A stretch of 64,000 bases of DNA, from positions 42,783 to 106,782 of IMG/VR virus record IMGVR_UViG_3300025838_000023. One strand, given 5' to 3'. The notes beneath the pieces are model-generated. The model ran no database searches, had not been told where the DNA came from, and saw only the letters and a program-made list of their open reading frames with translations. Positions 25,755-45,608 of this stretch are shown here, one piece after another. This DNA comes from a virus. Taxonomy: Duplodnaviria > Caudoviricetes. The translations under genes and the position numbers were made by a program. Position 1 is the first letter of the stretch; each line of letters starts with the position of its first letter.

Positions 25755-25807
25755 AATATTAAAATCTTACGTGAAATTACGAAGAAGTCAATATTATTTA
25801 TCGAAAA

Positions 25808-31366: not shown

Positions 31367-31447
31367 TGGTATTCCAGAAAGGACTTGCACCTTCATGAAT
31401 TCTATTTACTCTTTCTAAAGTTTAGGAAACTTAGGAGATACTGGAAT
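31367..31447 (-). tRNA. atypical tRNA-Arg(CCT), D arm absent
   Basis: acceptor ATTCCAG/CTGGAAT, loop TT-CCT-AA; same scaffold as 41344..41425. Confidence 0.6.
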
Positions 31448-31456
31448 ATTTAAAAT

Positions 31457-31532
31457 TGGTGCTCACGATAGGTCTTGCACCTACACTGTCAACGTTCTCA
31501 ACGTTGTTTCTCTGCTTTTGGAATACGTAAGC
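31457..31532 (-). tRNA. tRNA-Leu(GAG), short V arm
   Basis: CAACG-TTGAGAA-CGTTG, ACCA. Confidence 0.8.
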
Positions 31533-31747
31533 ATATTATCAATTAGAGTTTTCTCTATTGTTTGAAATTCTACATTCCAAACAATCAAAAGTATCAAAAT
31601 TATTTCCTTTATTTGGTTCACTTTCCCAAGATATTTCATGGCCGCATTCTAAAGTAATAATATATCCTTCATGAAAAGATCGATACTTACTAACTCTTTT
31701 ATATCCAGCAATTGTCCAACAATCTATTTTTGTATTTTTCATAAATT

Positions 31748-31835
31748 TGGCGGAACGCTAAGGACTTGCACCCTAAACCATTTCTAGTTCCAATTGATTT
31801 CCAATCAATGTTCAACCTTGTTGAATTAACGTTCC
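31748..31835 (-). tRNA. tRNA-Ser(GGA)
   Basis: ATTGA-TTGGAAA-TCAAT, long V arm, GCCA. Confidence 0.8.
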
Positions 31836-32765
31836 ATTTAAATTTTTCTTCTCATATACTGGCAAAAACATTTGAGATTCTTCAAAACTCTTATGCACTA
31901 AAGAAATTCCATTTTTCACACTATCTTCAATATCCCTCATAAATGGTGTCTGCCCTTTCGTATCCTTATTACCAGTTATATCTAGATAAGAATATATTAA
32001 ATTTATTGCCATCTCTTCCAATGCATTAACGTTCATCTTCTCTAAATCATCAATAAGAGATAAACTATAACGAAAAATCTTATCATCAATAGTTATTTTT
32101 ATTCTCTCATCAATAACAAATAAGAAATCTGTAGGAAACCTTACAAATATTTTCTTATCAGGAAGAGATTTTTGTAATATTTCCTGAAGTTTTCTTTCAA
32201 ATTCAAATTGTTCAGATATTGTCATTTTATTCTTCGTCAAAAATATCTCCACCGTTTAAATATGCATCAACTTCTTCAACAATAACATTCCATATTTCAT
32301 CTTCCGCTTCCGCACCATGCATCTTTTTAATATCCTTAATCATCCCATTGTCCCATTCTACTGTCATTACTGCACCATCAACAGTAATAGCCCTACGCTG
32401 ATACTCCTTGTTTGATGTAGTATTCATGTTCTTCAATCCAAATACATGCCCTGGAAATTCTTCTCTCAATATCTCTAAAATTTTCATACTAGTATATTAT
32501 CACAAGGATTTGAATTATCAATATCATTTTCAGATAATTGTTTTCTAATTTCAGATATAAACAAATCTATAATATATTGTTCCATATTCAATCCATAATA
32601 AAATTTGGCATCATCCACCATATCCTCATTCCAAGAAATTTTCATCTTCCTGCCATCAATCATTAAATACTTTCTAGGTGCAAAATCATTAAGTTGAATT
32701 TCATATTCTTTCAACTCTATAACATGATCAGGAAAGTGGTTTCTTAATACTTCTAATATATCCAT
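31812..32765 (-). other. three small hypothetical ORFs; 32227..32487 and 32484..32765 are paralogs
   Basis: MKILEILREEFPGHV vs MDILEVLRNHFPDHV. Confidence 0.65.
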
Positions 32766-32803
32766 TACAATATTATATCAGAAATTATTAACTTGTCAAA
32801 ATT

Positions 32804-32879
32804 TGGTCCGGTATCTGAGTGCTGCCCTCAGTATCTCCTGATCCCAAGTCAGGCGGATTTGCTGTCTTCCTCATACCGG
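32804..32879 (-). tRNA. tRNA-Pro(TGG)
   Basis: CCTGA-CTTGGGA-TCAGG, ACCA. Confidence 0.85.
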
Positions 32880-32888
32880 ATATAAAAT

Positions 32889-32972
32889 TGGTGCGTAGGG
32901 AGAGAATTTGCACTCTCACAGAATTAACGGGTGTTTTACAGACACTTGGACTCACTCTTGTCCAGCCGACGC
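32889..32972 (-). tRNA. tRNA-Tyr(GTA)
   Basis: loop CT-GTA-AA; near-copy of 41506..41588. Confidence 0.75.
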
Positions 32973-32984
32973 AATAAAAATTAT

Positions 32985-33239
32985 AATCTTAGTAATAGCC
33001 GATTTTCTGTATCTAGTTTTCTCATTTGACTATGTAATATTACTATCACATCTCCCCGTTTATAGAGAAGCGCACCAACCCGAAGATTAAAACGATCAGC
33101 ACCAATCTATCTTCTGTTTGGCTTGCACCGTAACCATCGTGGTATTAACAAGTATTACTACTCTCCCATCGGTTCTGCTGTGGTGTATCGAACTTCCTCT
33201 GCAATCCTTTGAAAGGTGCAGCGAGAAACTGCCAAGATT
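32985..33239 (-). ncRNA. rnpB: minimal RNase P RNA (~255 nt)
   Basis: P1 AATCTTGG/CTAAGATT; CR-I GAGGAAGTTCG; GGTGCAAG; AGTCAAATG; CR-V ACAGAAAATCGGCTAT. Confidence 0.85.
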
Positions 33240-33245
33240 AAAGTT

Positions 33246-33321
33246 TGGAGCCTGTTGAAAGACTTGCACTTTCCATATTTGAATTACCGATTCAATACAT
33301 CGCTATCTATGTTTAACAGGC
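33246..33321 (-). tRNA. tRNA-Thr(GGT)
   Basis: TTGAA-TCGGTAA-TTCAA (C at position 33), TCCA. Confidence 0.75.
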
Positions 33322-33331
33322 GTTTAAAAAT

Positions 33332-33473
33332 TGGTAGTTCGTGACGGATTCGCACCCTCATGTGTCATAATTTATTCTATAGTTGAATAAACAACACCAA
33401 ACGCTTTTAGTCTACCATTTTATTGCAAGTTTACGTAATTTTGCAATGATTTCGTGACGTTTAAGCTACAACT
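33332..33473 (-). ncRNA. tRNA-ended RNA with an internal multi-hairpin domain
   Basis: AGTTGT/ACGAACT-ACCA, T arm GAGGG-TGCGAAT-CCGTC, GTCA/TGAC helix enclosing two hairpins. Confidence 0.5.
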
Positions 33474-33496
33474 TATTGGCATATATTATTAAAAAT

Positions 33497-33571
33497 TGGC
33501 CGCTGATAGATTATTTGCAAATCTCTCTATGGTGTTTCAAGCCATTACATTCCTACATATGTTAACCAGCG
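33497..33571 (-). tRNA. tRNA-Phe(GAA), divergent paralog overlapping the end of the endonuclease ORF
   Basis: D arm identical to 34403..34477; loop TT-GAA-AC. Confidence 0.6.
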
Positions 33572-34337
33572 ATAAAAAAGTTTCTTTAGAATCACATTTA
33601 AGGAGTTTCTTATAAATATCTTCTTTAATTATCTTAACTTTATTAATAGATTCAGGATTCTGTTCAAATACTAATTTCATTTTGTTTTCATCGTCTCCCC
33701 ACCAGTAACCTTTAATTTCTAAATAAAAATCATAATCAACTAAATGAAAATCTGGAGTATACGAATGTTCACACTCATCTTTAATATAAGAGAAAGTGTA
33801 ATTATTAGTCCCTATTTTCTTCCAAGAAATTTCCAATTCTTCCATTTTAAGTGCAATATTTCGTTCCCATGTTCCTTGAACTTTTTGACCACTTACTTCA
33901 TACCATTTACATCTTCCACCTTTATTTTTCACCGACATTATTTTACTTAACTTTTTCTTGGTTTCTAAAGTATGTTTATGATTTTTCCAATATGGGGTAT
34001 TTTCGGTATAAAACTTTTTAACAGACAAAGCATTTTGCATCACTCTAGAATCTGTTTCTTTTGATAACCCTTTATTCCAAGCTACATGAGTTCCTTTAGT
34101 AATTGAAACAAACCCTATACCATTTTCATGTTTTCTCCATATATGACTACCTATTCCTGATTTAGTTGTTGATTTGAATTCACATTTCGGACAAATATAG
34201 TATCCATCTATAAACATATCATCTGTTATTTTCCTATGAACTTTCTTATTAGGGTTATTACATGCCTTTTTATGTGCTTTGATATTCGAATTTGATATCA
34301 TTCTATTACAATAAGGGCATTCGGTTTTTTGTCTCAT
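33537..34337 (-). CDS. free-standing homing-type endonuclease (zinc fingers, NUMOD-like repeats, PD-(D/E)XK domain)
   Basis: CPYC..H, CPKC..H, AWNKG, HTLETKKK, YTPDF...LEIKG. Confidence 0.75.
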   Translation of the reverse strand: MRQKTECPYCNRMISNSNIKAHKKACNNPNKKVHRKITDDMFIDGYYICPKCEFKSTTKSGIGSHIWRKHENGIGFVSITKGTHVAWNKGLSKETDSRVMQNALSVKKFYTENTPYWKNHKHTLETKKKLSKIMSVKNKGGRCKWYEVSGQKVQGTWERNIALKMEELEISWKKIGTNNYTFSYIKDECEHSYTPDFHLVDYDFYLEIKGYWWGDDENKMKLVFEQNPESINKVKIIKEDIYKKLLKCDSKETFLSLVNICRNVMA

Positions 34338-34402
34338 ATAATATATTTAACACATTCATATGAAATAAGTCTAACTCTTATCTATTAAAGCTATATTCAA
34401 AT

Positions 34403-34477
34403 TGGTGGCTGGAGAGGTATTTGCAACCCCCTGTATGGATTTTCAGTCCACCACATTCCTACATATGTTATCCAGCC
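34403..34477 (-). tRNA. tRNA-Phe(GAA)
   Basis: GTGGA-CTGAAAA-TCCAT, ACCA. Confidence 0.85.
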
Positions 34478-34489
34478 ATTTTTAAATTG

Positions 34490-34765
34490 TTATATTTTAT
34501 TTTGCATATAATCAGGAAATTTTATTGCAATCCCCTCTCCTTCATTTTCTCCAATTTCCCATCCATAACTGCAATAACTACTAAAATGTGTCTTTTCTTT
34601 ATATCCTACTACATAATCTGTTGGCACGGTATGAGGAATATAAACAGTCACAAATTCCCCGTATCCACAATCTTTTTTAATCCCCACACAAGACATTCCA
34701 TCATGTTCAGTAATAAACATATCTTCCGCATTAAACTCAATTGTCATTTTTAATTCGTATTTCAT
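34490..34765 (-). CDS. hypothetical protein
   Basis: ORF with an upstream TTGACA-17-TATAAT-like promoter. Confidence 0.6.
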   Translation of the reverse strand: MKYELKMTIEFNAEDMFITEHDGMSCVGIKKDCGYGEFVTVYIPHTVPTDYVVGYKEKTHFSSYCSYGWEIGENEGEGIAIKFPDYMQNKI

Positions 34766-34812
34766 GTTGATATTATATTACAAAATTACATAATGTCAAT
34801 ATGATTTTAAAT

Positions 34813-34916
34813 TGGAGGGCTTCAACAGGAACTTACCCTGTTCGTATTGTAACATAATCAATCTCGATCTTTCGAAGATTCACTCAGTATGATTATGGTA
34901 TACTACAATTTCGCCC
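34813..34916 (-). ncRNA. tRNA-ended RNA with a long rod replacing the D and anticodon arms
   Basis: GGGC/GCCC-TCCA, T-like arm AACAGG-GTAAGTT-CCTGTT, rod ATTGTAG/TTACAAT plus CATAATCA/TGATTATG. Confidence 0.5.
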
Positions 34917-34924
34917 ATTTAAAT

Positions 34925-35105
34925 TGGTTCTAGAGGTTAGATTCACACTAACTTAGTCTTGTCGAAGGTTTTAATTTTTGACTACTTAAAGCTTCTATAA
35001 ATTATTTTCTCGTAGTATGCCATGATAATACTCTTTGGACGCAATACTCATAATTTACTTACAGCAACTCTAAATTATAGGCGGGTTGAAATGTGTCACT
35101 CAGAA
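34925..35105 (-). ncRNA. tRNA-ended RNA with a ~135-nt internal domain
   Basis: TTCTGAG/CTCTAGAA-CCA, T arm GTTAG-TGTGAAT-CTAAC. Confidence 0.45.
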
Positions 35106-35171
35106 CATTGCAATCTTCTCAAGCACCTTTTTATTGGCTAATCGAATTCGCCACGCCGATCTTGAAAATTA

Positions 35172-35523
35172 TGGTGGAGAGCAGGGAGGATCGAACTCCC
35201 TGTCCTAAAAAAACTTCATTTATATATCTACATGCTTATATTCTTTAATGTATTCGGTAGCATAACAAAGAATAAAACTTTCTACCATAGTTAAATTATT
35301 TTCTAGCATCCGTCTCACAAATATAACGAGAAACTCGACGGACTATCCTATGCAGCACGTTTTCAAATATAGGAGTCTTTGAAACGTGGATTAACTTAAG
35401 CAGCTAACGCTAGTTCTGTATTATCAGCACTTATCTTTTCGATTGATTTTTAAAGAAGCCAACAATCATCTTCTACATGCAACAATAAACTCGATCTTTT
35501 TAGTCGAATCCAAGTAGCTCCCC
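35172..35523 (-). ncRNA. ssrA: tmRNA, tag (A)ADNTELALAA*
   Basis: 5' GGGGAGC...GGATTCGAC; G3:U70; 3' GGGAGTTCGATCCTCCC-TGCTCTCCACCA; tag codons 35396-35428. Confidence 0.95.
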
Positions 35524-35528
35524 AAAAA

Positions 35529-35603
35529 TGGTAGGCATGGAAGAAATTGCATCCTCACCAAGAGCTTCGTAAACTCGTGTGCTATCTGTTACACTACACG
35601 CCC
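35529..35603 (-). tRNA. tRNA-Arg(ACG)
   Basis: loop TT-ACG-AA, ACCA. Confidence 0.8.
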
Positions 35604-35727
35604 ATTTAAAATTCTTCGCTAAAAATAATACCTACCAAGGCACTAAGGAATTGAACCATTTATTCTTAGCGAAAAGTAATTGTAATAAGTTCTAGAATAT
35701 TTCAATTACTTTCTTTTATATAAAATT

Positions 35728-35803
35728 TGGTAGGCATGGAGAGAATCCCACTCTCACCCTTCGGTTTCGAAGACCGATGCGCTAATAATTACGCTACACG
35801 CCC
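35728..35803 (-). tRNA. tRNA-Arg(TCG)
   Basis: TCGGT-CTTCGAA-ACCGA, ACCA. Confidence 0.85.
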
Positions 35804-35810
35804 ATAAATT

Positions 35811-35885
35811 TGGGGGTTTAGTTCGGTTACTCTCCGAATCCGGTAAATTCACAGTTTACAGTGCTAATATTACACCACAAAACCC
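35811..35885 (-). tRNA. tRNA-His(GTG)
   Basis: GTAAA-CTGTGAA-TTTAC; G-1 opposite C73. Confidence 0.85.
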
Positions 35886-35899
35886 ATCTAAAAACTTTT

Positions 35900-36042
35900 G
35901 GCATTGTATTTCCGCTATACGAAAAGCTAATATTCGTCATAACCACTACTCACAATCAGAAGATATCATTCCGATATTCTATAGTGGGGTTGGCTTATTT
36001 GATTCCCATTAACTTTAAAGGATTCGAACCTTTGATTCTGCC
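35900..36042 (-). ncRNA. circularly permuted tRNA-like RNA, unit 2
   Basis: order: GGCAG, T arm AAAGG-TTCGAAT-CCTTT, AAAGTTAAT...ATTAGCTTT acceptor-like helix, D arm GTAT-AGCGGAA-ATAC, ATGCC. Confidence 0.7.
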
Positions 36043-36168
36043 TTATTATCTAAATTCATCCAAAACTTACCGTAGTCGTATTGCAAATCCGAGCCTATGC
36101 AGTTTTGGCAGTATTATATGTTATGGAGTCCACGTTCCACTCCCGTAACCTTTATAATACTGAAATTT

Positions 36169-36316
36169 GATGCCCTGCTACCATTACACCACAGATACCA
36201 CAAATCGTCATAACCAGCTACTATATCATATGATCATCTCTGATACTTCGTAGTGGGGTAGGCTTACTTGATTCATTGTTTATATACATGAACGGACTCG
36301 AACCGTTTCTTTCACC
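36169..36316 (-). ncRNA. circularly permuted tRNA-like RNA, unit 1
   Basis: order: GGTGA, T arm AACGG-TTCGAGT-CCGTT, CATGTAT...GTATCTG, D-like GTGTAATGGTAGCAG, GCATC; shares the cap motif with unit 2. Confidence 0.62.
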
Positions 36317-36336
36317 TTACATTCTTAAAAAATTAC

Positions 36337-36423
36337 CGGATGGCTGATATCCCGCCTACCATGCCCTTTTAGAGCACCATCGATTTAGCAAATCGCGCTA
36401 GTCACTCGACTAGTTAACCATCC
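36337..36423 (-). tRNA. tRNA-Ser(GCT), degenerate T arm, no encoded CCA
   Basis: loop TT-GCT-AA, V arm TGCTCT-AAA-AGGGCA. Confidence 0.55.
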
Positions 36424-36573
36424 ATATTAAAAAATTCTGAGTAAATATCAATCTCCCATAGGAGACAAATGTTATAGCTTTATTACATTAAGATTTGTTG
36501 TTACCATAAAAGCAATACTCTCACAACTCTAATCCGATTATTACTCAACGTTATCCGCTAAGATAACGAAAAT

Positions 36574-36660
36574 TGGAGTGTAGTTAGGGGATCGCACCCT
36601 ACGTAGGCTTTCGCCCAACTGGTTTGCAAGCAGCAAAGTTCACTAGCTCTCTCACTACAC
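36574..36660 (-). tRNA. tRNA-Cys(GCA) with long V arm
   Basis: acceptor GTGTAGT/ACTACAC, U73-CCA, loop TT-GCA-AA, V arm TGGGC-GAAA-GCCTA. Confidence 0.7.
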
Positions 36661-36735
36661 ATTAAAAGTGACCCGCTAATATTTTACAACCATATGCAGG
36701 GCTGGTTGGATATGATTACTACCATATCAAAATTA

Positions 36736-37011
36736 TTACCATGTTACATTTCCATCTTTAATCCATCCATGAAACTTACAACTACTATCTGGAAAATCAC
36801 AGTTAATAGAAGGAGTTACTGATAGATTTGAAATGTCTCCAGATTTATTCCAAACTGCTCCAGAATCATAAATAGGCGGCAATTCAAAATTAACTAAAAT
36901 AGAATGTCCAGAATCGCATTTCGGACAAACAAATCTTAATACTTTATCCGATCTTTCATTGTATCGAATCATCTCACCTTCTAGTTTCTCTAATGATACT
37001 AAATTACTCAT
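36736..37011 (-). CDS. small Cys/His protein, DUF6527-like
   Basis: F.CP.C...H, W...G...LSVTPSI...C.FHGWI.DG. Confidence 0.7.
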   Translation of the reverse strand: MSNLVSLEKLEGEMIRYNERSDKVLRFVCPKCDSGHSILVNFELPPIYDSGAVWNKSGDISNLSVTPSINCDFPDSSCKFHGWIKDGNVTW

Positions 37012-37154
37012 ACTATTATTTAGCAAACTTTTAATCCTTATAAATTCATATCAAAGATAAAACTTCATAAATATTAAAACCATTGCTAATAGATAAATAA
37101 CTATATGAATAAAGATACCATACTTCTAGAAGAATTATATATGAAAATCGTAGA

Positions 37155-37522
37155 AGAGTTATCATAAGCATAGAAGAATATTACTATTTTCTAGATTTAT
37201 GCCTTAAAGACTTTTTATTCTATTTTATAGGATTTAAAAGGAAATCTATAACTCAATTTAGATTTCTTTAATTTGGAATATAACGTTTCTATGAACCAAT
37301 TTTAGTATTTGATCTACCATTTTCTTCCAATGAGTAGGTAGAATACTAAAACCAATTCAAAGATATTTTATATCCATTTTATCATCTTTCAATGATAAAA
37401 ATTGTTTTATTATAATAGTATTTATTCTACTTTATATCAAAATCAAGAGATAAATAATTTAAATTGTATAATATTTTTAACTTATCTTAAAAATGTTATA
37501 TTATGTATTAAGTTTTATTAGA
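37155..37522 (-). mobile_element. MITE family A copy 2
   Basis: near-identical to 20635..21019 with small indels; AGA/TCT core at both junctions. Confidence 0.9.
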
Positions 37523-37864
37523 CCAATTCGGAAATGCTACTCTCATATGGCTAGAAAAAGATGGAACAGTTTATGATACAGAAGAAACCCAACATGGAAT
37601 CTACGTAGCGGATAATGCCTCTTTATTTGGCGTGAATTATAACTTCGCAAAAAAGACTTTCGATAAATATGGAGACGAAGGAATTGATGAAGCAGCAGCA
37701 ATAATGTGTGAACAAGCCTTCAAAAAAGGTTGGATGCGTGTTGTTAAAGTGCCTTGGAATAAAAAGATTTTCGTCGAAGGAAACGAACCAACAAAAGCAC
37801 AAAAACATGTAATCGAAGATTGGTATTTCGAAGATACTAGTTGGGATGTCATTTGGCAAAGATG

Positions 37865-39097
37865 GGTTGGTAACAGTAGTTTGAAATTCTAAAAAATCTA
37901 AAGTTATAAAAATAATTCATTATTATGGGTTAAATTACAAGAAAAGTAAAACACATTTAGATAAATATAAATGTGAAGATAATAAGAGCAGTTAAATGCA
38001 CAAACAAATTTGCTACTAAAAAGAAGCAAGATGTTCTTACATCTTTACTTGCCGAATACGGCAATGTTGTAAATTTCTTCATTGAATTCTTTTGGTTAAA
38101 AGATAAACTTCCAACTAAGAACGATCTTTTAAAACATATAGTTGATCTACCAATACAAACAACTTGGCTTTCAGCCAGATTACGTAAAACTGCTGCTAGA
38201 GAAGCTATAGATATGATCTTAGCAGTAAAAGAAAGATGGAAAGATAAACCAGATAAAATAAATAAACCAACACACCAAGGTAAAAGAATGTGCTGTTCTT
38301 CAACAATAGCAGAACTCCAAAACTCAAAATCTTCATTCGATAAATACCTTAAAATAGGTTCTGTTGGTAAGAAAATTAAACTAGAAATACCAATCAAAAA
38401 ACATAAACAGTTTAATTATTGGGAACGTCAAGGCAGACGCCTTAACTCATATATTATAACTAAAGACTATACTCAGTTCGTTTTCGAAATCGAAACTGGA
38501 ACTAAAAAGGATCAAGGTAAAACAATTGGTATTGATACTGGTATTAAATGTCTAGCAACTCTGTCCAATGGACAAAGAATAGGAGACAAAATAGAAGATA
38601 TAATAATTAAAATCAATAGATGCAAACATGGTTCTAAAAGACAAAAGCAATTAAGGAATTATCTACGTCATTATATTGATACTAGTGCAAAAGAAGTTTT
38701 TAAGCAGAATCCTAATTTGAGTAGGATTATAGTCGAAAGACTAAGTAATATGAATTTTAAATCGAAGATTAAGCGTAAGCTTGGTCGTAAGATGAGAAAA
38801 ACTATCGGTAGTTGGAACTACAGATATTGGCTATCTAGAATGGAAAGAAACTGTGAGGAGAACCGTGTTCGATATTCCAGTATAAATCCAGCTTATACGA
38901 GTCAATGCTGTAACCAATGTGGTCATACTGACAGGATGAATCGATCAAAACAAGATACTTTTTATTGTGTTAAATGTGGTCATACTGACCATGCTGACCA
39001 TAATGCAGCTAAGAATATTTTGGATCGTGGAATCTCCCTAGTTTATCGTCGGGGGTAATAGTTTAAATTTTAGATTTTTTAGAATTTAAACAACGGT
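37865..39097 (+). mobile_element. tnpB-only element (IS607-like) with perfect 19-bp subterminal inverted repeats
   Basis: AAATTCTAAAAAATCTAAA 37884-37902 and its complement 39069-39087; GGT at both junctions; left end ambiguous by 4 nt. Confidence 0.75.
37973..39058 (+). CDS. tnpB: TnpB with zinc ribbon
   Basis: IGIDTG, IVERL, PAYTSQCCNQCG, CVKCG, HADHNAAKNI. Confidence 0.92.
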   Translation: MKIIRAVKCTNKFATKKKQDVLTSLLAEYGNVVNFFIEFFWLKDKLPTKNDLLKHIVDLPIQTTWLSARLRKTAAREAIDMILAVKERWKDKPDKINKPTHQGKRMCCSSTIAELQNSKSSFDKYLKIGSVGKKIKLEIPIKKHKQFNYWERQGRRLNSYIITKDYTQFVFEIETGTKKDQGKTIGIDTGIKCLATLSNGQRIGDKIEDIIIKINRCKHGSKRQKQLRNYLRHYIDTSAKEVFKQNPNLSRIIVERLSNMNFKSKIKRKLGRKMRKTIGSWNYRYWLSRMERNCEENRVRYSSINPAYTSQCCNQCGHTDRMNRSKQDTFYCVKCGHTDHADHNAAKNILDRGISLVYRRG

Positions 39098-39155
39098 CAG
39101 TAATCAATTCGGACCACCAAAACCAATCACTCTGTTCAACGCAGAATAAAAAAAT

Positions 39156-39246
39156 TGGCGGAAGACTGAGGAGTTGCGCCCCAAACCTTTTAGAGTTCCT
39201 TCTGTTTTCAAGGCAGAGTCAGTATCGCTTGTCTGATTAATCTTCC
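39156..39246 (-). tRNA. tRNA-Ser(TGA)
   Basis: loop CT-TGA-AA, long V arm, GCCA. Confidence 0.8.
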
Positions 39247-39263
39247 ATAATAAAATTTAAAAT

Positions 39264-39337
39264 TGGTAGGAGATAAAAGTGCCGCCCTTTTGACTCATGG
39301 ATGTAAACCAAGCATTATACTGTTTAACTAATCTCCC
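39264..39337 (-). tRNA. tRNA-Val(TAC)
   Basis: loop TT-TAC-AT, ACCA. Confidence 0.8.
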
Positions 39338-39348
39338 ATTACTAAATT

Positions 39349-39424
39349 TGGAAGACCCACCCCGATTTGCACGGAAGGACGATGAAGTTCAAAGCTTCAT
39401 ATGCTACTTTTACATCATGGGTCT
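39349..39424 (-). tRNA. tRNA-Gln(TTG)
   Basis: TGAAG-CTTTGAA-CTTCA, TCCA. Confidence 0.85.
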
Positions 39425-39434
39425 ATTAAAATCT

Positions 39435-39521
39435 TAGAAGTGTACGGTAATGCTCCGTATCGAGGCCCCAATCTAGGACAAAAAGTTTATAAAACTTTCT
39501 TGGCTACTTAGCCACACTTCC
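39435..39521 (-). tRNA. atypical tRNA-Ile(TAT), long V arm, no encoded CCA
   Basis: AAAGT-TTTATAA-ACTTT, T arm TACGG/CCGTA. Confidence 0.65.
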
Positions 39522-39530
39522 ATTTAAAAT

Positions 39531-39608
39531 TGGTTGCGGAAGGGCCGAACTCGAATCGGGCAGTTTTAGCTTATGAGACTAACGTGTTTACCTTGACACT
39601 ACCCCGCA
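39531..39608 (-). tRNA. tRNA-Met(CAT)
   Basis: TTAGT-CTCATAA-GCTAA, ACCA. Confidence 0.8.
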
Positions 39609-39617
39609 ATATAAATC

Positions 39618-39694
39618 TGTAAACCCCATCATGGAATCGCACCACAATTCTGTCTTTCAGAGAGACTCGTAATAACTGTTATACGAATGGGGTA
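39618..39694 (-). tRNA. tRNA-Gln(CTG)
   Basis: loop CT-CTG-AA; 3' end is not CCA. Confidence 0.65.
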
Positions 39695-39701
39695 TAAAAA
39701 C

Positions 39702-39812
39702 TTGCGGAGATGGGATTCAAACACCATCATAGCATATTAATCATTTTGCGAACAATTAATACTATTTGCCAGAGTTATGAGCACTGTTAGCCTCTCAGGG
39801 CTTGTCTCCGCT
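39702..39812 (-). tRNA. tRNA(CAT) with a ~40-nt variable hairpin
   Basis: GCGGAG/CTCCGC acceptor, loop CT-CAT-AA, V hairpin ATAGTATTAATTG...TGATTAATATGCTAT. Confidence 0.6.
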
Positions 39813-39832
39813 ATTTAAAAACTTTAAAAATT

Positions 39833-39918
39833 TGGTAGCAGAAAAGAGAATTGCACTCTTACAGTCTTACGACAATTGCTTATGAAACAATCCCCACACT
39901 AATACGGGTTGCTCTGCC
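39833..39918 (-). tRNA. tRNA(CAT), Met or Ile2, long V arm
   Basis: ATTGT-TTCATAA-GCAAT, ACCA. Confidence 0.7.
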
Positions 39919-40035
39919 ATTTTTCAAAAATTGTAACCTTTACTAAAATTTTGGCACAATGCCTATGCTTAGTTAATAATACAAACTTCGAAAACTTGTA
40001 TTTAAAACTCTTACATAACATCATATTAAAAAATT

Positions 40036-40111
40036 TGGTGGACCGTAAGGGATTCGCACCCTTCACACAAATATTGCAAGTATTCATCGCCCCTGTGGAA
40101 CATGACAGCCC
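40036..40111 (-). tRNA. tRNA-Ala(TGC)
   Basis: G3:U70, loop CT-TGC-AA. Confidence 0.8.
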
Positions 40112-40194
40112 ATATTAAAAATTTGTTGTAGTATCGAGAATCTACTACATTTATCTTCCGAATTTAACGGACGAATCTCGTCGTTTAAAGAAAT

Positions 40195-40274
40195 TGGTGG
40201 AGAATATCGGCATCGAACCGATCTGAAAATTTCTGATTGCAAATCAGACGATCACCCAAGCAATCCCATCCCCC
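40195..40274 (-). tRNA. tRNA-Ala(TGC)
   Basis: TCTGA-TTTGCAA-TCAGA, ACCA. Confidence 0.8.
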
Positions 40275-40284
40275 ATATAAAAAT

Positions 40285-40377
40285 TGGCACCAAGACTAGG
40301 ACTCGCACCTAGATACCGTTCAAGACGGATTACACGAAGGTAACAACTTCGCCACTTACTAGTTAGTGTATCTTGGT
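40285..40377 (-). tRNA. tRNA-Asn(GTT) with long V arm
   Basis: CGAAG-TTGTTAC-CTTCG, V arm CCGT/ACGG, G73-CCA. Confidence 0.7.
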
Positions 40378-40384
40378 ATAAAAT

Positions 40385-40459
40385 TGGCTCCAACGCTAGG
40401 TTCTGCCCCTAGACCGTCTCGCTTAACAGGCGAATGGACTACTGTTATCCCACGTTGGA
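40385..40459 (-). tRNA. tRNA-Asn(GTT)
   Basis: TTCGC-CTGTTAA-GCGAG, GCCA. Confidence 0.85.
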
Positions 40460-40467
40460 ATTTAAAT

Positions 40468-40543
40468 TGGCACCGTTGACAGGACTCGCACCCGCTAAAA
40501 ACAGCTTGAAAAACTGCTCACTCGACTCTTTGTATTCAACGGC
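40468..40543 (-). tRNA. tRNA-Glu(TTC)
   Basis: GCAGT-TTTTCAA-GCTGT, GCCA. Confidence 0.75.
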
Positions 40544-40607
40544 ATAAAATTTGATCATAAATGTATATTTGCACCCACATTTTAATATAAATTGATTAAA
40601 TATAAAT

Positions 40608-41354
40608 ATGAAGGTTCAATTCAAACATACAGAAGAATCAAAAGCAAACTTAAGTATAAAACGGAAAGAATGGCTTAAAAATAATCCTGATAAACATCCT
40701 TGGAAACGTCATGATAAATTTAAATCAAAACCATGCGAAAACGCAAAACAGTTTTTGAGAGATAATAATATTCCATTCATTGAAGAATATACTCCAGAAA
40801 ATATAGATAGAAATTATTCTATTGATATTGCATTACCTGATAAAATGATTTCTTTGGAGATAAACGGTAATCAACATTATAATCGAGACGGAACATTAAA
40901 ACCTTATTATCAGGAAAGACAAGATATATTAGAAAAAGCTGGATGGATAGTATACCAAATACATTATTCTGCATGTTTTAATCTTGATAAGTGGAAAGAT
41001 TTTTTTAATATACTTAAATATGCTGTGGTTAAAGTCGATTTCGATTATTTTACATATGTTCCTAAGAAATTAGAAAGAAAAACACTACATGATAAATGTG
41101 GTTGTGGTAATAAAAAACTTATTAAGTCTAAAAATTGTTTTATATGTAATAATAAAATGCCTAAAATATATAAAAGAAAAACTGTTAGACCAACAAAAGA
41201 ATTACTTACAAAATTAATATGGGAAAAACCATTAACTAAAATAGGAAAAGATTTTAATGTAACCGATAATGCTATAAGAAAATGGTGTAAATTATATAAC
41301 ATAACAGAATTTCCAAAACGTGGATATTGGCTGAAATCTAAATTGGTAAACTAG
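40608..41354 (+). CDS. free-standing homing-type endonuclease (NUMOD3, Vsr/DUF559-like nuclease, zinc finger, HTH)
   Basis: HTEESKANLS, YSIDIA...LEINGNQHY, GW.V..I, IGKDFNVTDNAIRKWCK. Confidence 0.75.
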   Translation: MKVQFKHTEESKANLSIKRKEWLKNNPDKHPWKRHDKFKSKPCENAKQFLRDNNIPFIEEYTPENIDRNYSIDIALPDKMISLEINGNQHYNRDGTLKPYYQERQDILEKAGWIVYQIHYSACFNLDKWKDFFNILKYAVVKVDFDYFTYVPKKLERKTLHDKCGCGNKKLIKSKNCFICNNKMPKIYKRKTVRPTKELLTKLIWEKPLTKIGKDFNVTDNAIRKWCKLYNITEFPKRGYWLKSKLVN

Positions 41355-41425
41355 ATGGGACTTGCACCCCACATGTTTTCTAATTACTCTTTCACCTGTT
41401 TAGAAGACAGAGGAGATACTAGTTT
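41344..41425 (-). tRNA. atypical tRNA-Arg(TCT), D arm absent
   Basis: CTGT-CTTCTAA-ACAG, extended V region, ACCA. Confidence 0.65.
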
Positions 41426-41428
41426 GTT

Positions 41429-41496
41429 TGGAGCCGTATAGGATATTGCAATCCTCCTGCTATATTACGAGTATAGGCTGTGTGCTTACATACGGC
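41429..41496 (-). tRNA. tRNA-Thr(CGT), reduced D arm
   Basis: CTATA-CTCGTAA-TATAG; identical to 43269..43336 except position 34. Confidence 0.75.
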
Positions 41497-41505
41497 ATAG
41501 AAAAT

Positions 41506-41588
41506 TGGTGCGTAGGAGAAGAATTTGCACTTCCACAGATTAACGGGTGTTTTACAGACACTTGGACGCACTCTTGTCCATCCTACGC
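41506..41588 (-). tRNA. tRNA-Tyr(GTA)
   Basis: loop CT-GTA-AA, ACCA. Confidence 0.8.
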
Positions 41589-41601
41589 ATAATTAAATTC
41601 C

Positions 41602-41674
41602 CGGTATGGACGAGTGCTGCCCTCGCTTAAACTTGATTGACAATCAAGTATCGATGCTGTTCGAACTCCATACC
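41602..41674 (-). tRNA. tRNA-Asp(GTC), no encoded CCA
   Basis: CTTGA-TTGTCAA-TCAAG, G73. Confidence 0.75.
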
Positions 41675-41748
41675 ATTAAAAATTGGTCAAGTTATGTAGA
41701 TTGCCTCCACTACTAAGGTTTACTTGCACGACCTAGCTATATTTAAAT

Positions 41749-41822
41749 TGGCGCGACATAGGGGTTACGCTCCCCTGACTCCTCTTGGACAGAGAGATAG
41801 GTTACTATTACTTCAATGTCGC
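41749..41822 (-). tRNA. tRNA-Asp(GTC)
   Basis: TCTCT-CTGTCCA-AGAGG, GCCA. Confidence 0.85.
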
Positions 41823-41831
41823 ATTTAAAAT

Positions 41832-41907
41832 TGGTAGCCTCAGATGGATTTTCACCATCTTCTAAAGGTTGAGAACCTATGATCCTGTGTCATTAGACGA
41901 TGAGGCC
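41832..41907 (-). tRNA. tRNA-Glu(CTC)
   Basis: loop TT-CTC-AA, ACCA. Confidence 0.8.
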
Positions 41908-41915
41908 ATTTAAAT

Positions 41916-41991
41916 TGGTCGGATACCAGAGAATCGCACTCTGTCACCCCACTTCCAAGGCGGGTAAGCACACTTGCGCTATTCGTATCCG
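41916..41991 (-). tRNA. tRNA-Pro(TGG)
   Basis: CCCGC-CTTGGAA-GTGGG, ACCA. Confidence 0.8.
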
Positions 41992-42000
41992 TTATAAAAT

Positions 42001-42681
42001 TGGTTTTCGTTGCAGCTTTCGACTCTGCTATAGTAGCTACAAATGCGATGTGCTAATGCTACCGTGTTTCCCATGCAATGCCTCTCATATACCCTTTATG
42101 GTATTGTCACTGATTTATTATAAGTGCCTGTCTAGCCTTTCTACTAGCTCACGTTTTTTATGGTTAGCCCATCGCATTGTTACACTTTATCTTCTATCAG
42201 CGTTTTACATATACTATCTATTACCCACATATACTATACAGTTAGACAAAACATCAATTTTTATATTTTTAAATGGGCAGGGACTGTAAGCTCCTACCAA
42301 CCATAGAAGAAAGTGAATAACTTGGTGTTTATTCCGATCAACGAATACGGTTATGGATGCATAATACGGGTCTTCGGGTATTTCATAGGGTTACATACCT
42401 TTTCCGATTCGGCTATACATACACTGGTTAATTACAGTAATAAAACAATTTAATTTTCTGATAACCTATCTTACGATTAAACCTTTAGATTCTATCTTAT
42501 TTTATACCTTATCTTCCTCTTTTATTTTTGTTTCGAATATTAAAATAACCCCTCTCTTCTAATACTCTGTTCTTATTTAATCATAAATAATTTTTAAATC
42601 AACTACTATTTGCATTTAATTCATATCATTCCTTTATAAAAATGTATATTATATGCGACTAGTCGCTAACACTAAACGAAA
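42001..42681 (-). ncRNA. ~250-nt tRNA-ended structured RNA split near its 5' end by MITE B
   Basis: acceptor TTTCGTT/AACGAAA-ACCA, helix TATAGTA/TACTATA, T-like arm GCAG...CTGC, internal 15-nt long-range pairing. Confidence 0.6.
42238..42671 (-). mobile_element. MITE family B copy 2 (434 bp)
   Basis: near-identical to 23226..23659, same length, TGT core. Confidence 0.85.
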
Positions 42682-42685
42682 TTGT

Positions 42686-42769
42686 TGGCACGGAAATGAG
42701 GTAACGCTCCCCTTAGTATGAATACGCTAGTTTTGGAGACTAGATGCAATCCTTCTTGCGAGTTTCCGT
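42686..42769 (-). tRNA. tRNA-Trp(CCA), extended V region
   Basis: CTAGT-CTCCAAA-ACTAG, GCCA. Confidence 0.8.
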
Positions 42770-42778
42770 ATGATAAAT

Positions 42779-42871
42779 TGTTACAACGGGTGGGCTTCGC
42801 TCCCACGGTGAGGCTTGTAACCTGTCGGATTAAAAGTCCGATACTTTCGACTGGACTAAGTGAACCGTTGC
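42779..42871 (-). tRNA. tRNA-Lys(TTT) with long V arm
   Basis: TCGGA-CTTTTAA-TCCGA, V arm AGGTT-ACA-AGCCT; 3' ACA. Confidence 0.7.
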
Positions 42872-42879
42872 ATTAAAAG

Positions 42880-42954
42880 TGGTGGGGTCACGGGGACTTG
42901 CACCCCGACTTAACGATTTAAAAGACCGTTGTGCAGCTATTACACCATAACCCC
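42880..42954 (-). tRNA. tRNA-Lys(TTT)
   Basis: ACGGT-CTTTTAA-ATCGT, ACCA. Confidence 0.85.
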
Positions 42955-42966
42955 ATTATAAAAATT

Positions 42967-43045
42967 TGGTGGAATCGGAGGTAGTTGCAACCTCACGAAT
43001 GGTCTAGTTAAGAGCTAGTTGCCCGTCTACTGTAGCTTCGATTCC
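42967..43045 (-). tRNA. tRNA-Lys(CTT)
   Basis: CTAG-CTCTTAA-CTAG, ACCA. Confidence 0.8.
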
Positions 43046-43090
43046 TTTTGTGTCGTTATTTTTCTATGGTTGAAAAAATAACACTAAAAT

Positions 43091-43165
43091 TGGAGCACAT
43101 GATGGGTATCCCGCCCACATAAACTTCTTTGGAAGAGAAGCGCATTAGTTGTCTGCCACATGTGC
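43091..43165 (-). tRNA. tRNA-Gly(TCC)
   Basis: CTTCT-CTTCCAA-AGAAG, TCCA. Confidence 0.85.
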
Positions 43166-43173
43166 ATTAAAAT

Positions 43174-43261
43174 TGGAGCCTACAGAGGGACTCGCACCCC
43201 CGGTGAACCTTGCGGTTACAAGCTTACAAAGCTAGTCCTATCGCTACTAAGGGATGTAGGC
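43174..43261 (-). tRNA. tRNA-Thr(TGT) with long V arm
   Basis: loop TT-TGT-AA, V arm AACC-GCAA-GGTT. Confidence 0.75.
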
Positions 43262-43268
43262 ATTAAAT

Positions 43269-43336
43269 TGGAGCCGTATAGGATATTGCAATCCTCCTGC
43301 TATATTACAAGTATAGGCTGTGTGCTTACATACGGC
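43269..43336 (-). tRNA. tRNA-Thr(TGT), reduced D arm
   Basis: CTATA-CTTGTAA-TATAG, TCCA. Confidence 0.75.
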
Positions 43337-43348
43337 ATTAATAAAATC

Positions 43349-43420
43349 TAGCGCATAAGGGTTATGCTCCCTTGTCTATTCCTTGAAGGGGAATCGTCCT
43401 AGCTATTAGACGAATGCGCC
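43349..43420 (-). tRNA. tRNA-Glu(TTC), no encoded CCA
   Basis: ATTCC-CCTTCAA-GGAAT. Confidence 0.75.
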
Positions 43421-43429
43421 ATTTAAAAT

Positions 43430-43505
43430 TGGTAGTTCTAGAGTTGGTTGCAAACTCATCCATAATTTCTTGAGAATTATCGCTCTGCTCTTGGCGTATA
43501 GAACC
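43430..43505 (-). tRNA. tRNA-Leu(CAA), short V arm
   Basis: TAATT-CTCAAGA-AATTA, ACCA. Confidence 0.75.
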
Positions 43506-43516
43506 ATTTTTGAAAT

Positions 43517-43591
43517 TGGTGCCTATGGAGAGATTTGCACTCTCACTGTTCGGTGTCTAAGGCCGATTTCTCTGCATTGGAATACATAGGC
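43517..43591 (-). tRNA. tRNA-Leu(TAG), short V arm
   Basis: loop CT-TAG-AC, ACCA. Confidence 0.8.
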
Positions 43592-43638
43592 ATGTGTTAT
43601 TAATATTTTCTATAGTTGGAAATATCAAAACTAAAAAT

Positions 43639-43713
43639 TGGTGCTCATAGTCGGTCCCGCCCCGACACTGTTCGAATTTTAAGTTCGATTTCTCTGCGTT
43701 GGAATATATGAGC
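43639..43713 (-). tRNA. tRNA-Leu(TAA), short V arm
   Basis: TCGAA-CTTAAAA-TTCGA, ACCA. Confidence 0.85.
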
Positions 43714-43723
43714 ATTTTGAAAT

Positions 43724-43802
43724 TGGTTGCGGGGAGTGAAAATTGCATTCACTGTCAAGAAGCTTATGAGACTACTGCTGGTCTACTCCAGTCCACCCTG
43801 CA
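43724..43802 (-). tRNA. tRNA-Met(CAT), initiator-like ends
   Basis: loop CT-CAT-AA, 3' CCCCGCAACCA. Confidence 0.75.
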
Positions 43803-43809
43803 TATAAAT

Positions 43810-43885
43810 TGGTCCCTCGTGTTGGCTTTGCTCCAACCACCTAACGGTTATCAACCATTTGCTCTCCTGAATGAGCTAACGAGGG
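43810..43885 (-). tRNA. tRNA-Ile(GAT)
   Basis: AATGG-TTGATAA-CCGTT, ACCA. Confidence 0.85.
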
Positions 43886-43894
43886 ATTAAAATT

Positions 43895-43968
43895 TGGAGC
43901 GGGTAATCGAAATCGAATCGATATTTTCGCCTTGGCAAAGCAACGTAATACCACTATACCATACCCGC
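43895..43968 (-). tRNA. tRNA-Gly(GCC), first tRNA of the array
   Basis: GCGGGTA/TACCCGC, loop TT-GCC-AA, TCCA. Confidence 0.9.
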
Positions 43969-44417
43969 AAATTTTTATTTAGGTTAACATTAAGAATTTA
44001 TTCAGAAGGTATATATCATTCTACCCATTATTGGATGGGTATGTTAGCCTAAGAAATTGTGAGACTTGCCAATAATTTTATATAATTGGCAAGTCTCTTT
44101 TGGGAATACTGCCGAAATTTTTAAGGTTTGGCAGTATTCCCAAAGTTTTGTTACAGTTTGTTATGAACTAGTGGTATGGGTTTCACGCCATTTGACTAAT
44201 TCCTGTAACGGTTTAACTATAAAGAACAAACACCTATTATTCCGAGTTTCGCTATTTCTATTGATAAGCCGATTTCTCTTTCGAGGGTGTGTCGGACATT
44301 CGTTTCGCTTCTGGTTGAAACTCTCAAAACTCCTTTTAAATTTCCTAAATGGCCTACTATATTTCGGTGTTCCACGTATTCAATTATATGTAATTAAAAT
44401 TATTATATTTTTGCAAT

Positions 44418-44454
44418 AAAAAACTCGAACCTTTTTATTTTTCGGGTTCGAGTT
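44418..44454 (-). terminator. attenuator terminator upstream of the tRNA array
   Basis: minus strand AACTCGAACC...GGTTCGAGTT followed by TTTT. Confidence 0.85.
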
Positions 44455-44493
44455 AAGAAAACTTTTTATAAGTCTAACTATTTTCTTAACTCG
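44449..44493 (-). promoter_or_regulatory. antiterminator hairpin overlapping the leader stop codon and the terminator 5' strand
   Basis: perfect 13-bp CGAGTTAAGAAAA/TTTTCTTAACTCG. Confidence 0.75.
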
Positions 44494-44617
44494 TTTGCCC
44501 TCCTTGTGTATACTGTTCAAATGACCAGCAACGTTCACAAGTGGGCAGACTATTACCATTAATGGATTTTCTATCCATCTTGGTAAGTTGTCTTGCTATA
44601 TGTAAGTTCGCTTTCAT
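44486..44617 (-). CDS. putative 43-aa attenuator leader peptide MKANLHIARQLTKMDRKSINGNSLPTCERCWSFEQYTQGGQTS
   Basis: hand translation (below the ORF-track cutoff); lies between the promoters and the terminator. Confidence 0.7.
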   Translation of the reverse strand: MKANLHIARQLTKMDRKSINGNSLPTCERCWSFEQYTQGGQTS

Positions 44618-44654
44618 TTTTGAAGATTTTGGTTATAGTTGATTGTTGTAATTA

Positions 44655-44908
44655 TATTTAACGTGATTTACTATTTTTTCTTAGATTTTTTAAACTTTTT
44701 TTAATATTTGGTAATCTTAGTGGATTTTCTTTTTATTGTCAATTAGTTTTTTAATTTCTTTTTAGTTAGTATTTCGTGTTATTGGAGTATCTTAGCAGAA
44801 TATTTTGGGAAGTCAACTTTTATTTTCGATTTCTTTTTAATTTTCTGTTTTTGTTACTCTTTCGATTTATTGTGAAAGTATCTTAGCAGACTTTTCACAT
44901 ATTGTCAA
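44655..44908 (-). promoter_or_regulatory. three tandem sigma70 promoters plus a TAAATA late-type promoter driving the array
   Basis: TTGACA-17-TAAGAT (44714-44742), TTGACT-16-TAAGAT (44789-44816), TTGACA-17-TAAGAT (44880-44908), TTAAATA near 44656-44661. Confidence 0.75.
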
Positions 44909-44929: not shown

Positions 44930-45001
44930 TAAGAGCAGAGTTGGTGAGTGATAATTAACAACAAGAGGATTTTTTTATCTCACCCACCAACTCTGCTCTT
45001 A
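44930..45001. repeat. 17-bp perfect inverted repeat
   Basis: TAAGAGCAGAGTTGGTG / CACCAACTCTGCTCTTA; no T-tract on either strand. Confidence 0.85.
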
Positions 45002-45022: not shown

Positions 45023-45608
45023 TTACCATATCTTCTTAGGATTGCAAGGATTATTTTCGATTTCTTTTTGATATTCTTGAAATTCTGCCAATTCCAGTCC
45101 TTCTAGGGATTCTTCTCCTTCCATTAGTGGTTTTATAATATTCACTATGGAGTTTACATTATCGAAGCCATTTAACCATCGGTATTTTCCATCTCCTTTA
45201 TTATTGAGCATGAGTTTTGCCCAACGGTTTACGGTATTTGGTGCAATATTCTGAATTATATATTCTCTTATAGGTTCAGGGATATTCACCAAAATTTTGT
45301 AAACTTGTTTGGCGATTTCAATTTCAGAGAAGTATGGGGATTTTAGATATTCGGCGTCCATAATGTTATATATCGTCCAACAAAGCTGATAATTTATTAA
45401 ATGCTTGTATATCTCTACGGAACGAATCAAATTCTTTATCGACTCGTAATTCAGAAGCATTAAGTTCAACGGCACATTTCAAGCAACAATCTACAGTTTT
45501 ATACATTGTTGATCCATTATGAGGATGTTCACCATCTAAAAAAGTTATTCGGAGAACTTCGTTTGGTCGAATTTCTTTATCACATAGATCGCAAGTTATT
45601 TTTATCAT
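45023..45608 (-). other. two hypothetical ORFs (45366..45608 is Cys-rich; 45023..45361)
   Basis: ORF track. Confidence 0.6.

Follow-up and report, generated by a model that had tools for sequence, protein, structure and literature searches.

The control of phage transfer RNA (tRNA) arrays is largely unknown, and the locus described here raises the question of whether translation of a leader could govern transcription of such an array. The window, i.e. the whole stretch of 64,000 nucleotides (nt) analyzed, covers positions 42,783 to 106,782 of IMG/VR record IMGVR_UViG_3300025838_000023, a contig of 106.8 kb that is estimated to be 49% complete. It derives from an uncultured, T4-like phage with many translation-related genes, whose stable RNAs are a transfer-messenger RNA (tmRNA) and approximately 30 tRNA genes. 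Ahead of the tRNA array lies a leader with tandem promoters, a 43-codon open reading frame (ORF) and two overlapping hairpins. We consider it likely that this leader is a ribosome-operated, leader-peptide transcription attenuator that heads the stable-RNA operon and reports general decoding speed. At the level of the sequence, this reading draws on the elements and their registration, on a frame that is conserved and two helices that both covary, and on the codon diversity of the ORF.

All coordinates of the leader locus refer to the minus strand of the window. In the direction of transcription, its parts are the following (L124 is a second lineage, described below).

44880 to 44908, minus strand: promoter P1, TTGACA-17-TAAGAT with an extended -10 TG (pattern match)
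44789 to 44816, minus strand: promoter P2, TTGACT-16-TAAGAT with an extended -10 TG (pattern match)
44714 to 44742, minus strand: promoter P3, TTGACA-17-TAAGAT (pattern match)
44618 to 44713, minus strand: A-rich 5' leader of low G+C content, predicted by folding to be mostly unpaired, without a Shine-Dalgarno sequence
44655 to 44662, minus strand: GTTAAATA, a T4-type late-promoter-like motif about 35-40 nt ahead of the start codon
44486 to 44617, minus strand: leader ORF of 43 codons plus TAA, with ATG at 44617 and TAA at 44488-44486
44547 to 44593, minus strand: hairpin H1 in the ORF, about 17 base pairs (bp), apex GGAUAGnAAAUCC; the apex is conserved in sequence, and L124 has another pairing in place of the lower stem
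44497 to 44546, minus strand: hairpin H2 in the ORF, also about 17 bp, with base CUGCCC:GGAGGG conserved in both lineages
44449 to 44493, minus strand: antiterminator hairpin of 13-14 bp with a loop of 17-19 nt, 5' arm 44493-44480, 3' arm 44462-44449, -15.9 kcal/mol
44414 to 44454, minus strand: intrinsic terminator (function predicted) with a 10-bp stem, a 13-nt loop and a U-run, -13.0 kcal/mol
43895 to 43968, minus strand: tRNA-Gly(GCC), the first gene of the tRNA array, starting at 43968

A first-pass annotation of this DNA had described three sigma70 promoters and a TAAATA motif, a 43-codon ORF with 19 amino acids and 35 distinct codons, a stop codon within a 13-bp hairpin that shares AACTCG with a terminator and excludes it, and a first tRNA about 450 nt downstream. 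It had read these elements as a codon-diverse leader ORF on which the ribosome chooses between antiterminator and terminator ahead of the array. The promoters and the motif are present in the sequence (from 44908, 44816, 44742 and 44662, respectively), the ORF was reproduced, folding agrees with the hairpin at 13-14 bp, and the first tRNA starts 454 nt past the terminator; the core interpretation is supported as far as sequence reaches.

At the center of the locus, two structures share the same six nucleotides. The 5' arm of the antiterminator, CGAGUUAAGAAAA(U) at 44493-44480, contains the stop codon of the ORF, and the last six nucleotides of its 3' arm (AACUCG) are at the same time the first six of the terminator 5' arm. 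The terminator arms are AACUCGAACC and GGUUCGAGUU, at 44454-44445 and 44431-44422, respectively. Of the contig's 14 terminator candidates, only this one faces an upstream competitor of matching strength (-12.7 vs -12.5 kcal/mol), the competitors of the others ranging from 0 to -6 kcal/mol. When both strands of 222 kb from this and related phages were considered, four overlapping hairpin/terminator pairs were found, and the pair described here is the sole one in which an ORF ends within the first hairpin and tRNAs lie behind. H1 and H2 fold as self-contained hairpins and may act as pause or synchronizing hairpins.

The choice between the two structures was modeled in silico by partition-function folding with a ribosome footprint of 28 nt, which gave the following probabilities.

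Naked RNA: antiterminator 0.88 and terminator 0.15 in the window; 0.99 and 0.001 in L124
Ribosomal peptidyl (P) site on codons 1-37 (window) or 1-36 (L124): antiterminator 0.63-0.98 and terminator up to 0.57 in the window; 0.82-0.99 and up to 0.40 in L124
P site on the last four to five codons (39-43 in the window, 38-42 in L124): antiterminator approximately 0-0.17 and terminator 0.90-0.93 in the window; approximately 0-0.29 and 0.96 in L124

About 37 of the 43 stall positions in the window thus leave the antiterminator favored in the footprint model, and the modeled on/off behavior is the same in both lineages. Three properties of an attenuator are found here: mutual exclusion of antiterminator and terminator, a predicted terminator between the ORF and the regulated genes, and, in silico, a fold selected by ribosome position.

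The leader ORF encodes MKANLHIARQLTKMDRKSINGNSLPTCERCWSFEQYTQGGQTS. Its 43 codons include 35 distinct ones for 19 amino acids (no Val), with all four Thr codons and both codons for Lys, Gln, Cys and Asn; none occurs more than three times, and no cluster of cognate codons is found. The comparison with genomic 43-codon windows that the first-pass annotation had proposed bears the diversity out, as windows of the phage genes hold 24.8 distinct codons on average (standard deviation 2.4) and none of the 1806 reaches 35. Shuffles of the ORF's own bases reach this number in 1.3%. The same annotation had also pointed to unexpected GC-rich codons. The share of rare codons is not extreme, at 10 of the 43, a level reached by 9.7% of gene windows. 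The peculiarity of the ORF is the evenness of its codon use, not G+C-rich codons.

Comparative evidence, the decisive kind here, comes from L124, a 134.9-kb lake-metagenome scaffold that is syntenic with the window and was reached via the 90% cluster of a homologue of the 346-amino acid (aa) neighbor protein. Both carry gp15, the CCA-adding enzyme, an IMP-dehydrogenase-family protein and homologues of the 346-aa and 161-aa proteins, and the L124 lineage comprises 12 further copies differing by up to approximately 2% as well as three Joint Genome Institute (JGI) contigs. The equivalent place in L124 is occupied by three tandem TTGAC-N17-TATAAT promoters, followed by an A-rich leader containing TAAATA, a 42-codon ORF, a hairpin, a terminator and tRNAs. 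The ORF product, MNSIHTSPIAFTVDSKSIRGTSLPLCWNMVERYNQNAGGVKG, contains all 20 amino acids and is encoded by 35 distinct codons, against a mean of 24.7 and a maximum of 32 in the L124 coding background. Coding windows hold 20 amino-acid types with a probability of 0.004-0.005.

The two leaders are homologous by sequence alignment, with aligned blocks around the start codon and at the H1 apex, CUGCCC, UUGAAC and GGAGGG. The spacing of these anchor blocks differs by 3, 0, 0, 6 and 6 nt, and none of the three indels shifts the frame, which is the only one open in both lineages, the other two holding 2-6 stops. At the peptide level, identity is 44%, and Cys, Trp, His and Tyr are invariant; 22 of the 39 aligned codons differ nonsynonymously, yet each ORF has 35 distinct codons. 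In both lineages the stop codon lies in the antiterminator 5' arm (GAGUUAAG in the window, AGGUUAGG in L124), and the change from TAA (window) to TAG (L124) is compensated by a U-to-C change in the partner arm. As the MAFFT alignment misplaced the switch arms, the pairs were checked explicitly by script:

Antiterminator, window: GC AU GC UA UA AU AU GC
Antiterminator, L124: AU GC GC UA UA AU GC GC
Terminator, window: AU AU CG UA CG GC AU AU CG CG
Terminator, L124: AU AU CG CG UA AU AU GC CG

The antiterminator shows three compensatory double changes in eight aligned pairs, and the terminator three compensatory double changes plus one paired deletion in 9-10 pairs. With these six double changes in total, neither helix has a broken pair between the lineages.

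This conservation bears on the most trivial explanation, namely that the ORF arose fortuitously in the hairpin-rich spacer of a stable-RNA operon. The 740 nt that separate the first tRNA from the promoters are indeed full of stable hairpins, a stop-free frame of this length appears in 3.8% of shuffles of the ORF's bases, and the site was picked after being seen. Chance does not, however, account for an ORF, a stop position, a codon diversity and two helices that are all conserved in a second lineage, and we regard it as highly improbable.

The in-frame conservation, including the 44% identity and the four invariant residues, could alternatively denote an ordinary small early gene, in which the 43-residue peptide is the product, expressed at a high level from three promoters and followed by a leaky terminator, transcription of the array relying on read-through or on other promoters. 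The strong promoters would suit such a gene, and the ORF is called as a gene on nine contigs of the protein collection. Word-index protein searches with the peptide return only the peptide itself, and an exhaustive HMMER search among 1.84 billion representatives gave three hits, all of them repeat proteins that multiply a weak match of approximately 20 bits, which we rejected as spurious; no homologue was otherwise found in this set. The codon choice of the ORF is moreover unlike that of the phage's genes, and nonsynonymous changes predominate both between the lineages and among strains. A plain gene end also needs no stronger, covarying hairpin that disables its own terminator. A promoter-like site just past the terminator (TTGAAT-16-TATAGT, 44383-44356, minus strand) could serve the array in such an arrangement; it is not a conserved promoter, because it lies partly within a 50-nt insertion (44415-44366, minus strand) that is missing from L124. 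Altogether, we judge a small gene to be a poor candidate.

A stronger alternative, though still an unlikely one, takes the leader as a non-coding riboregulator. The switch would then be set by an RNA-binding protein of phage or host, by a small RNA or tRNA, or by folding kinetics that fix a constant read-through; H1 and H2 would be functional RNA domains (e.g. processing sites or a polymerase-modifying put-like element), and the open frame a by-product. It is here that several observations weigh against a ribosome-operated attenuator, continued in the next two paragraphs. The ORF region is strongly structured (z = -4.6) and RNA-like in composition, and the folding z for 301 nt of the leader is -5.9. 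The H1 apex and the H2 base are conserved at the DNA level, and the lower stem of H1 has been rebuilt with other bases in L124. The triplet diversity is not specific to the frame, as all six frames of the stretch hold 32-36 distinct triplets, and a uniform draw of codons gives a probability of 0.053 for at least 35 distinct ones. On the strength of diversity alone, a designed frame and a complex non-coding RNA cannot be told apart. The complete amino-acid set of L124 has a conditional probability of 0.07 given the 16 shared residues, and is therefore suggestive and not independent. Variants among L124-lineage strains are mostly nonsynonymous (V13M, P24S, I9T, R32L, Q35T, G38R), which fits an unimportant peptide and also fits a non-coding RNA; the peptide sequence as such is not conserved across them, and variant L138 loses Gln. 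Gene callers also skipped the ORF in the L124 lineage. A riboregulator does not, however, explain why indels of 3, 6 and 6 nt keep the sole open frame in both lineages, nor why the stop codon sits within the 5' arm in both with its change compensated in the partner arm. It also finds no counterpart in Rfam, in which no family, the T-box (RF00230) and known leaders included, matches within 44420-44700 at E-values up to 10.

Further reservations concern the switch itself. The terminator loop is large (13 nt), and neither a pause hairpin nor an anti-antiterminator of the 1:2 type was identified in the leader. No anti-antiterminator segment 1 emerged from minimum free energy or ensemble folding either, in which the naked RNA favors the antiterminator in both lineages. 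The covariation amounts to one comparison, as it comes from two diverged lineages plus near-identical strains.

The third reservation concerns phylogenetic breadth. The earlier proposal that array heads of related phages carry a short, codon-diverse ORF with a covarying antiterminator and terminator stood for L124, with its homologous leader and covarying helices, and failed for distant relatives, which are mostly without the device. No such leader was found at the examined array heads of the distant relatives G005, G002, G009, G017, G018 and G029, and the look-alike in G004 is weaker, a 24-codon ORF and two overlapping hairpins preceding tRNA-Gly with a poor U-tail. In most relatives found through gp15, a small tRNA set directly follows ordinary genes, and two copies (L001 and L002) are 100% identical and hence carry no comparative information. 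Queries of the phage collection with the region (blastn), gp15 (tblastn) and the first tRNAs (blastn) gave no useful relatives. Likewise, nothing useful came from exact-pattern and protein scans of IMG/VR (hairpin, tRNA-Gly, the 150-aa and 413-aa neighbors and the G004 neighbor), from a metagenome scan with the 112-aa neighbor or from a genome-contig scan with the downstream RNA. Homologues of the 346-aa neighbor in other contexts (L003, L004, L015-L020, L144-L147) have no leader.

Two loci in relatives are recorded separately. In L027 (IMGVR_UViG_3300047510_003583), a more distant relative whose gp15 is 54% identical, positions 1779-1925 hold the motif TATAAATA and a 24-codon ORF with 16 amino acids, which places it in the top 4-5% of the coding windows there. 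Two hairpins sharing ACCCGCU stand just before tRNA-Gly(GCC), with a poor U-tail, which makes this locus a weak analogue. A 43-codon TTG ORF before the G002 array was considered as a leader and rejected, as it is a tRNA gene read as protein.

The region at the 5' side sets the leader apart as a unit. The upstream gene ends at 45023 and is followed by a long hairpin and then by the three promoters. Sites of the form TTGAC[AT]-N16/17-TAAGAT occur five times in the 106.8-kb contig, and three of them are these tandem sigma70-type promoters. The late-type motif GTTAAATA taken alone is statistically undistinctive in this AT-rich genome. Folding places the start codon of the leader ORF in unpaired A-rich RNA, like the starts of the phage's other genes. 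The missing Shine-Dalgarno sequence before the leader ORF is uninformative, because 92 of the 104 long ORFs of this phage also lack one. The hairpin that forms the boundary is:

44930 to 45001, minus strand: near-perfect hairpin of 22-25 bp without a U-run on either strand, -39.1 kcal/mol, z = -8.2; 5' boundary of the leader unit

This hairpin might serve as a processing site, act as a terminator that lacks a U-tract or represent an inverted repeat.

Some smaller observations on signals in and around the leader can be added. An AGGAGG inside the leader ORF (44505-44500, minus strand; L124:14330-14336) is conserved, belongs to the 3' arm of H2 and pairs with CUGCCC; it lies about 12-15 nt ahead of the stop codon, no start codon follows it, and the genome hardly uses Shine-Dalgarno sequences. 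Many start codons in the contig have TAAATA 5-9 nt ahead of them, a spacing that suggests late transcripts with very short leaders, and a promoter at 25791 would likewise yield a nearly leaderless transcript. Among strains of the L124 lineage, an 82-nt promoter repeat is present in three or two copies (L124:13917-14110; L125, L130, L133), and many assemblies of this lineage break just past the leader.

Behind the terminator, the first conserved product is not a tRNA but a structured RNA, followed by the array.

44216 to 44335, minus strand: conserved structured RNA of approximately 120 nt without an Rfam match (L124:14440-14560)
From 43968 down to about 31.4 kb, minus strand: tRNA array, with the tmRNA at 35172-35523 inside

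The RNA of approximately 120 nt is more conserved between the lineages than the leader, with long identical runs, and folds by consensus into an outer stem plus three hairpins. The first-pass annotation, which had placed RNase P in the array, may have taken this RNA for it; an Rfam scan gives the tmRNA and tRNAs only, and RNase P identity is not supported.

The array itself (31400-44000, minus strand) is under-called, with 10 tRNAs by ARAGORN at default settings, 15 by Rfam and approximately 30 by relaxed ARAGORN. All but one of 16 printed tRNA candidates have an encoded CCA end, most of these ends are followed by an A and a T-rich spacer (CCAATTT in most), and many candidates have non-canonical T loops. 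A probable tRNA with a UAC anticodon loop at 39267-39337 led us to reject the idea that Val is missing from the leader because the array lacks a tRNA-Val. Plus-strand mobile genes, namely a transposase (37973-39058) and an HNH endonuclease (40608-41354), interrupt the array. Two perfect hairpins of 13-15 bp in the spacer at 44061-44144, each followed by T-rich sequence on the plus strand, could stop antisense transcription from the plus-strand genes inside the array. The translation-rich gene set of the contig comprises the gp15 tail-sheath stabilizer, the CCA-adding enzyme, a class II aminoacyl-tRNA synthetase, a chaperonin and NAMPT.

How would an attenuator of this kind work? Host RNA polymerase would start at the three strong tandem promoters, and probably at the late promoter too, and transcribe the A-rich leader, on which ribosomes would load to translate the 43-codon frame and sample its 35 codons. 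By default, the nascent RNA would fold the 44493-44449 hairpin and lock the first six bases of the terminator stem, and polymerase would read on into the RNA of approximately 120 nt and the tRNA/tmRNA array. A ribosome that keeps pace to the last four or five codons or the stop would cover the 5' arm of the hairpin; the freed 3' arm would complete the terminator and transcription would end. A ribosome delayed at almost any earlier codon would leave the antiterminator intact. Almost every codon class appears once or twice in the frame, so that slowness at nearly any codon would increase read-through, and overall decoding speed would be converted into phage tRNA output. We infer that the ORF is translated, that the terminator functions, that ribosome and polymerase are coupled and that the physiological trigger is tRNA cleavage or starvation.

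The role of such a device may be feedback on the phage's own tRNA supply, a response to host tRNA damage, or both. More tentatively, and as a possibility that we would not yet call probable, the leader could be a built-in meter of total decoding capacity: transcription of the approximately 30 tRNAs, the tmRNA and the RNA of approximately 120 nt would be raised when any host tRNA is depleted or cleaved (e.g. by anticodon nucleases) and shut down once phage tRNAs restore speed, forming a self-regulating counter-defense circuit. That the RNAs would be made only under stress, as had been suggested earlier, goes a step further; basal read-through and transcription from the late promoter are equally possible.

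In attenuators of the trp/his type (trpL, hisL, pheL, thrL, leuL, ilv), a short translated ORF is followed by a terminator and an antiterminator that exclude each other; a ribosome at the end of the ORF leads to termination, and a stall upstream to read-through. The phage leader resembles these enterobacterial systems in its leader ORF, in the terminator before the regulated genes, in the exclusive antiterminator and in the 5' strand that a ribosome would cover. It differs in three respects. Instead of a run of codons for a single amino acid, it has a near-maximal diversity (35 of 43). The 1:2 anti-antiterminator of the classical systems was not found, and untranslated RNA is predicted to read through. 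Finally, classical attenuators control biosynthetic enzymes, whereas the phage-borne leader precedes tRNAs, a tmRNA and the RNA of approximately 120 nt. T-box riboswitches (RF00230) likewise switch between antiterminator and terminator according to the state of tRNA, but they bind uncharged tRNA directly and do not need translation, and the phage leader contains no match, specifier loop or T-box sequence.

Nearest in logic are the attenuators in which an upstream ORF (uORF) responds to general translation stress. The uORFs of whiB7 (PMC10274678), of vmlR in B. subtilis (PMC9226507) and of msrD (10.1101/2021.11.29.470318) are coupled to a terminator/antiterminator, and stalls of many causes lead to read-through. 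The mycobacterial whiB7 leader is reported to be activated when amino-acid biosynthesis genes, tRNAs and tRNA synthetases are knocked down (PMC10274678). The genes behind such uORFs encode a transcription factor or resistance proteins, and alanine is enriched in the uORF of whiB7. The phage leader, in contrast, has an even codon spread, shows no sequence similarity to them and has the decoding machinery as its output, which would close a direct feedback loop.

Phage tRNAs have been found to rescue infection from tRNA-cleaving defense systems (PMC11555353, PMC11464382), and a full-text literature search returned no published account of an attenuator of phage tRNA genes. If our reading is true, the leader would carry a textbook mechanism beyond amino-acid supply, to decoding capacity as such, with a compact candidate sensor of approximately 300 nt, and would explain why its frame is kept maximally codon-diverse while the peptide drifts.

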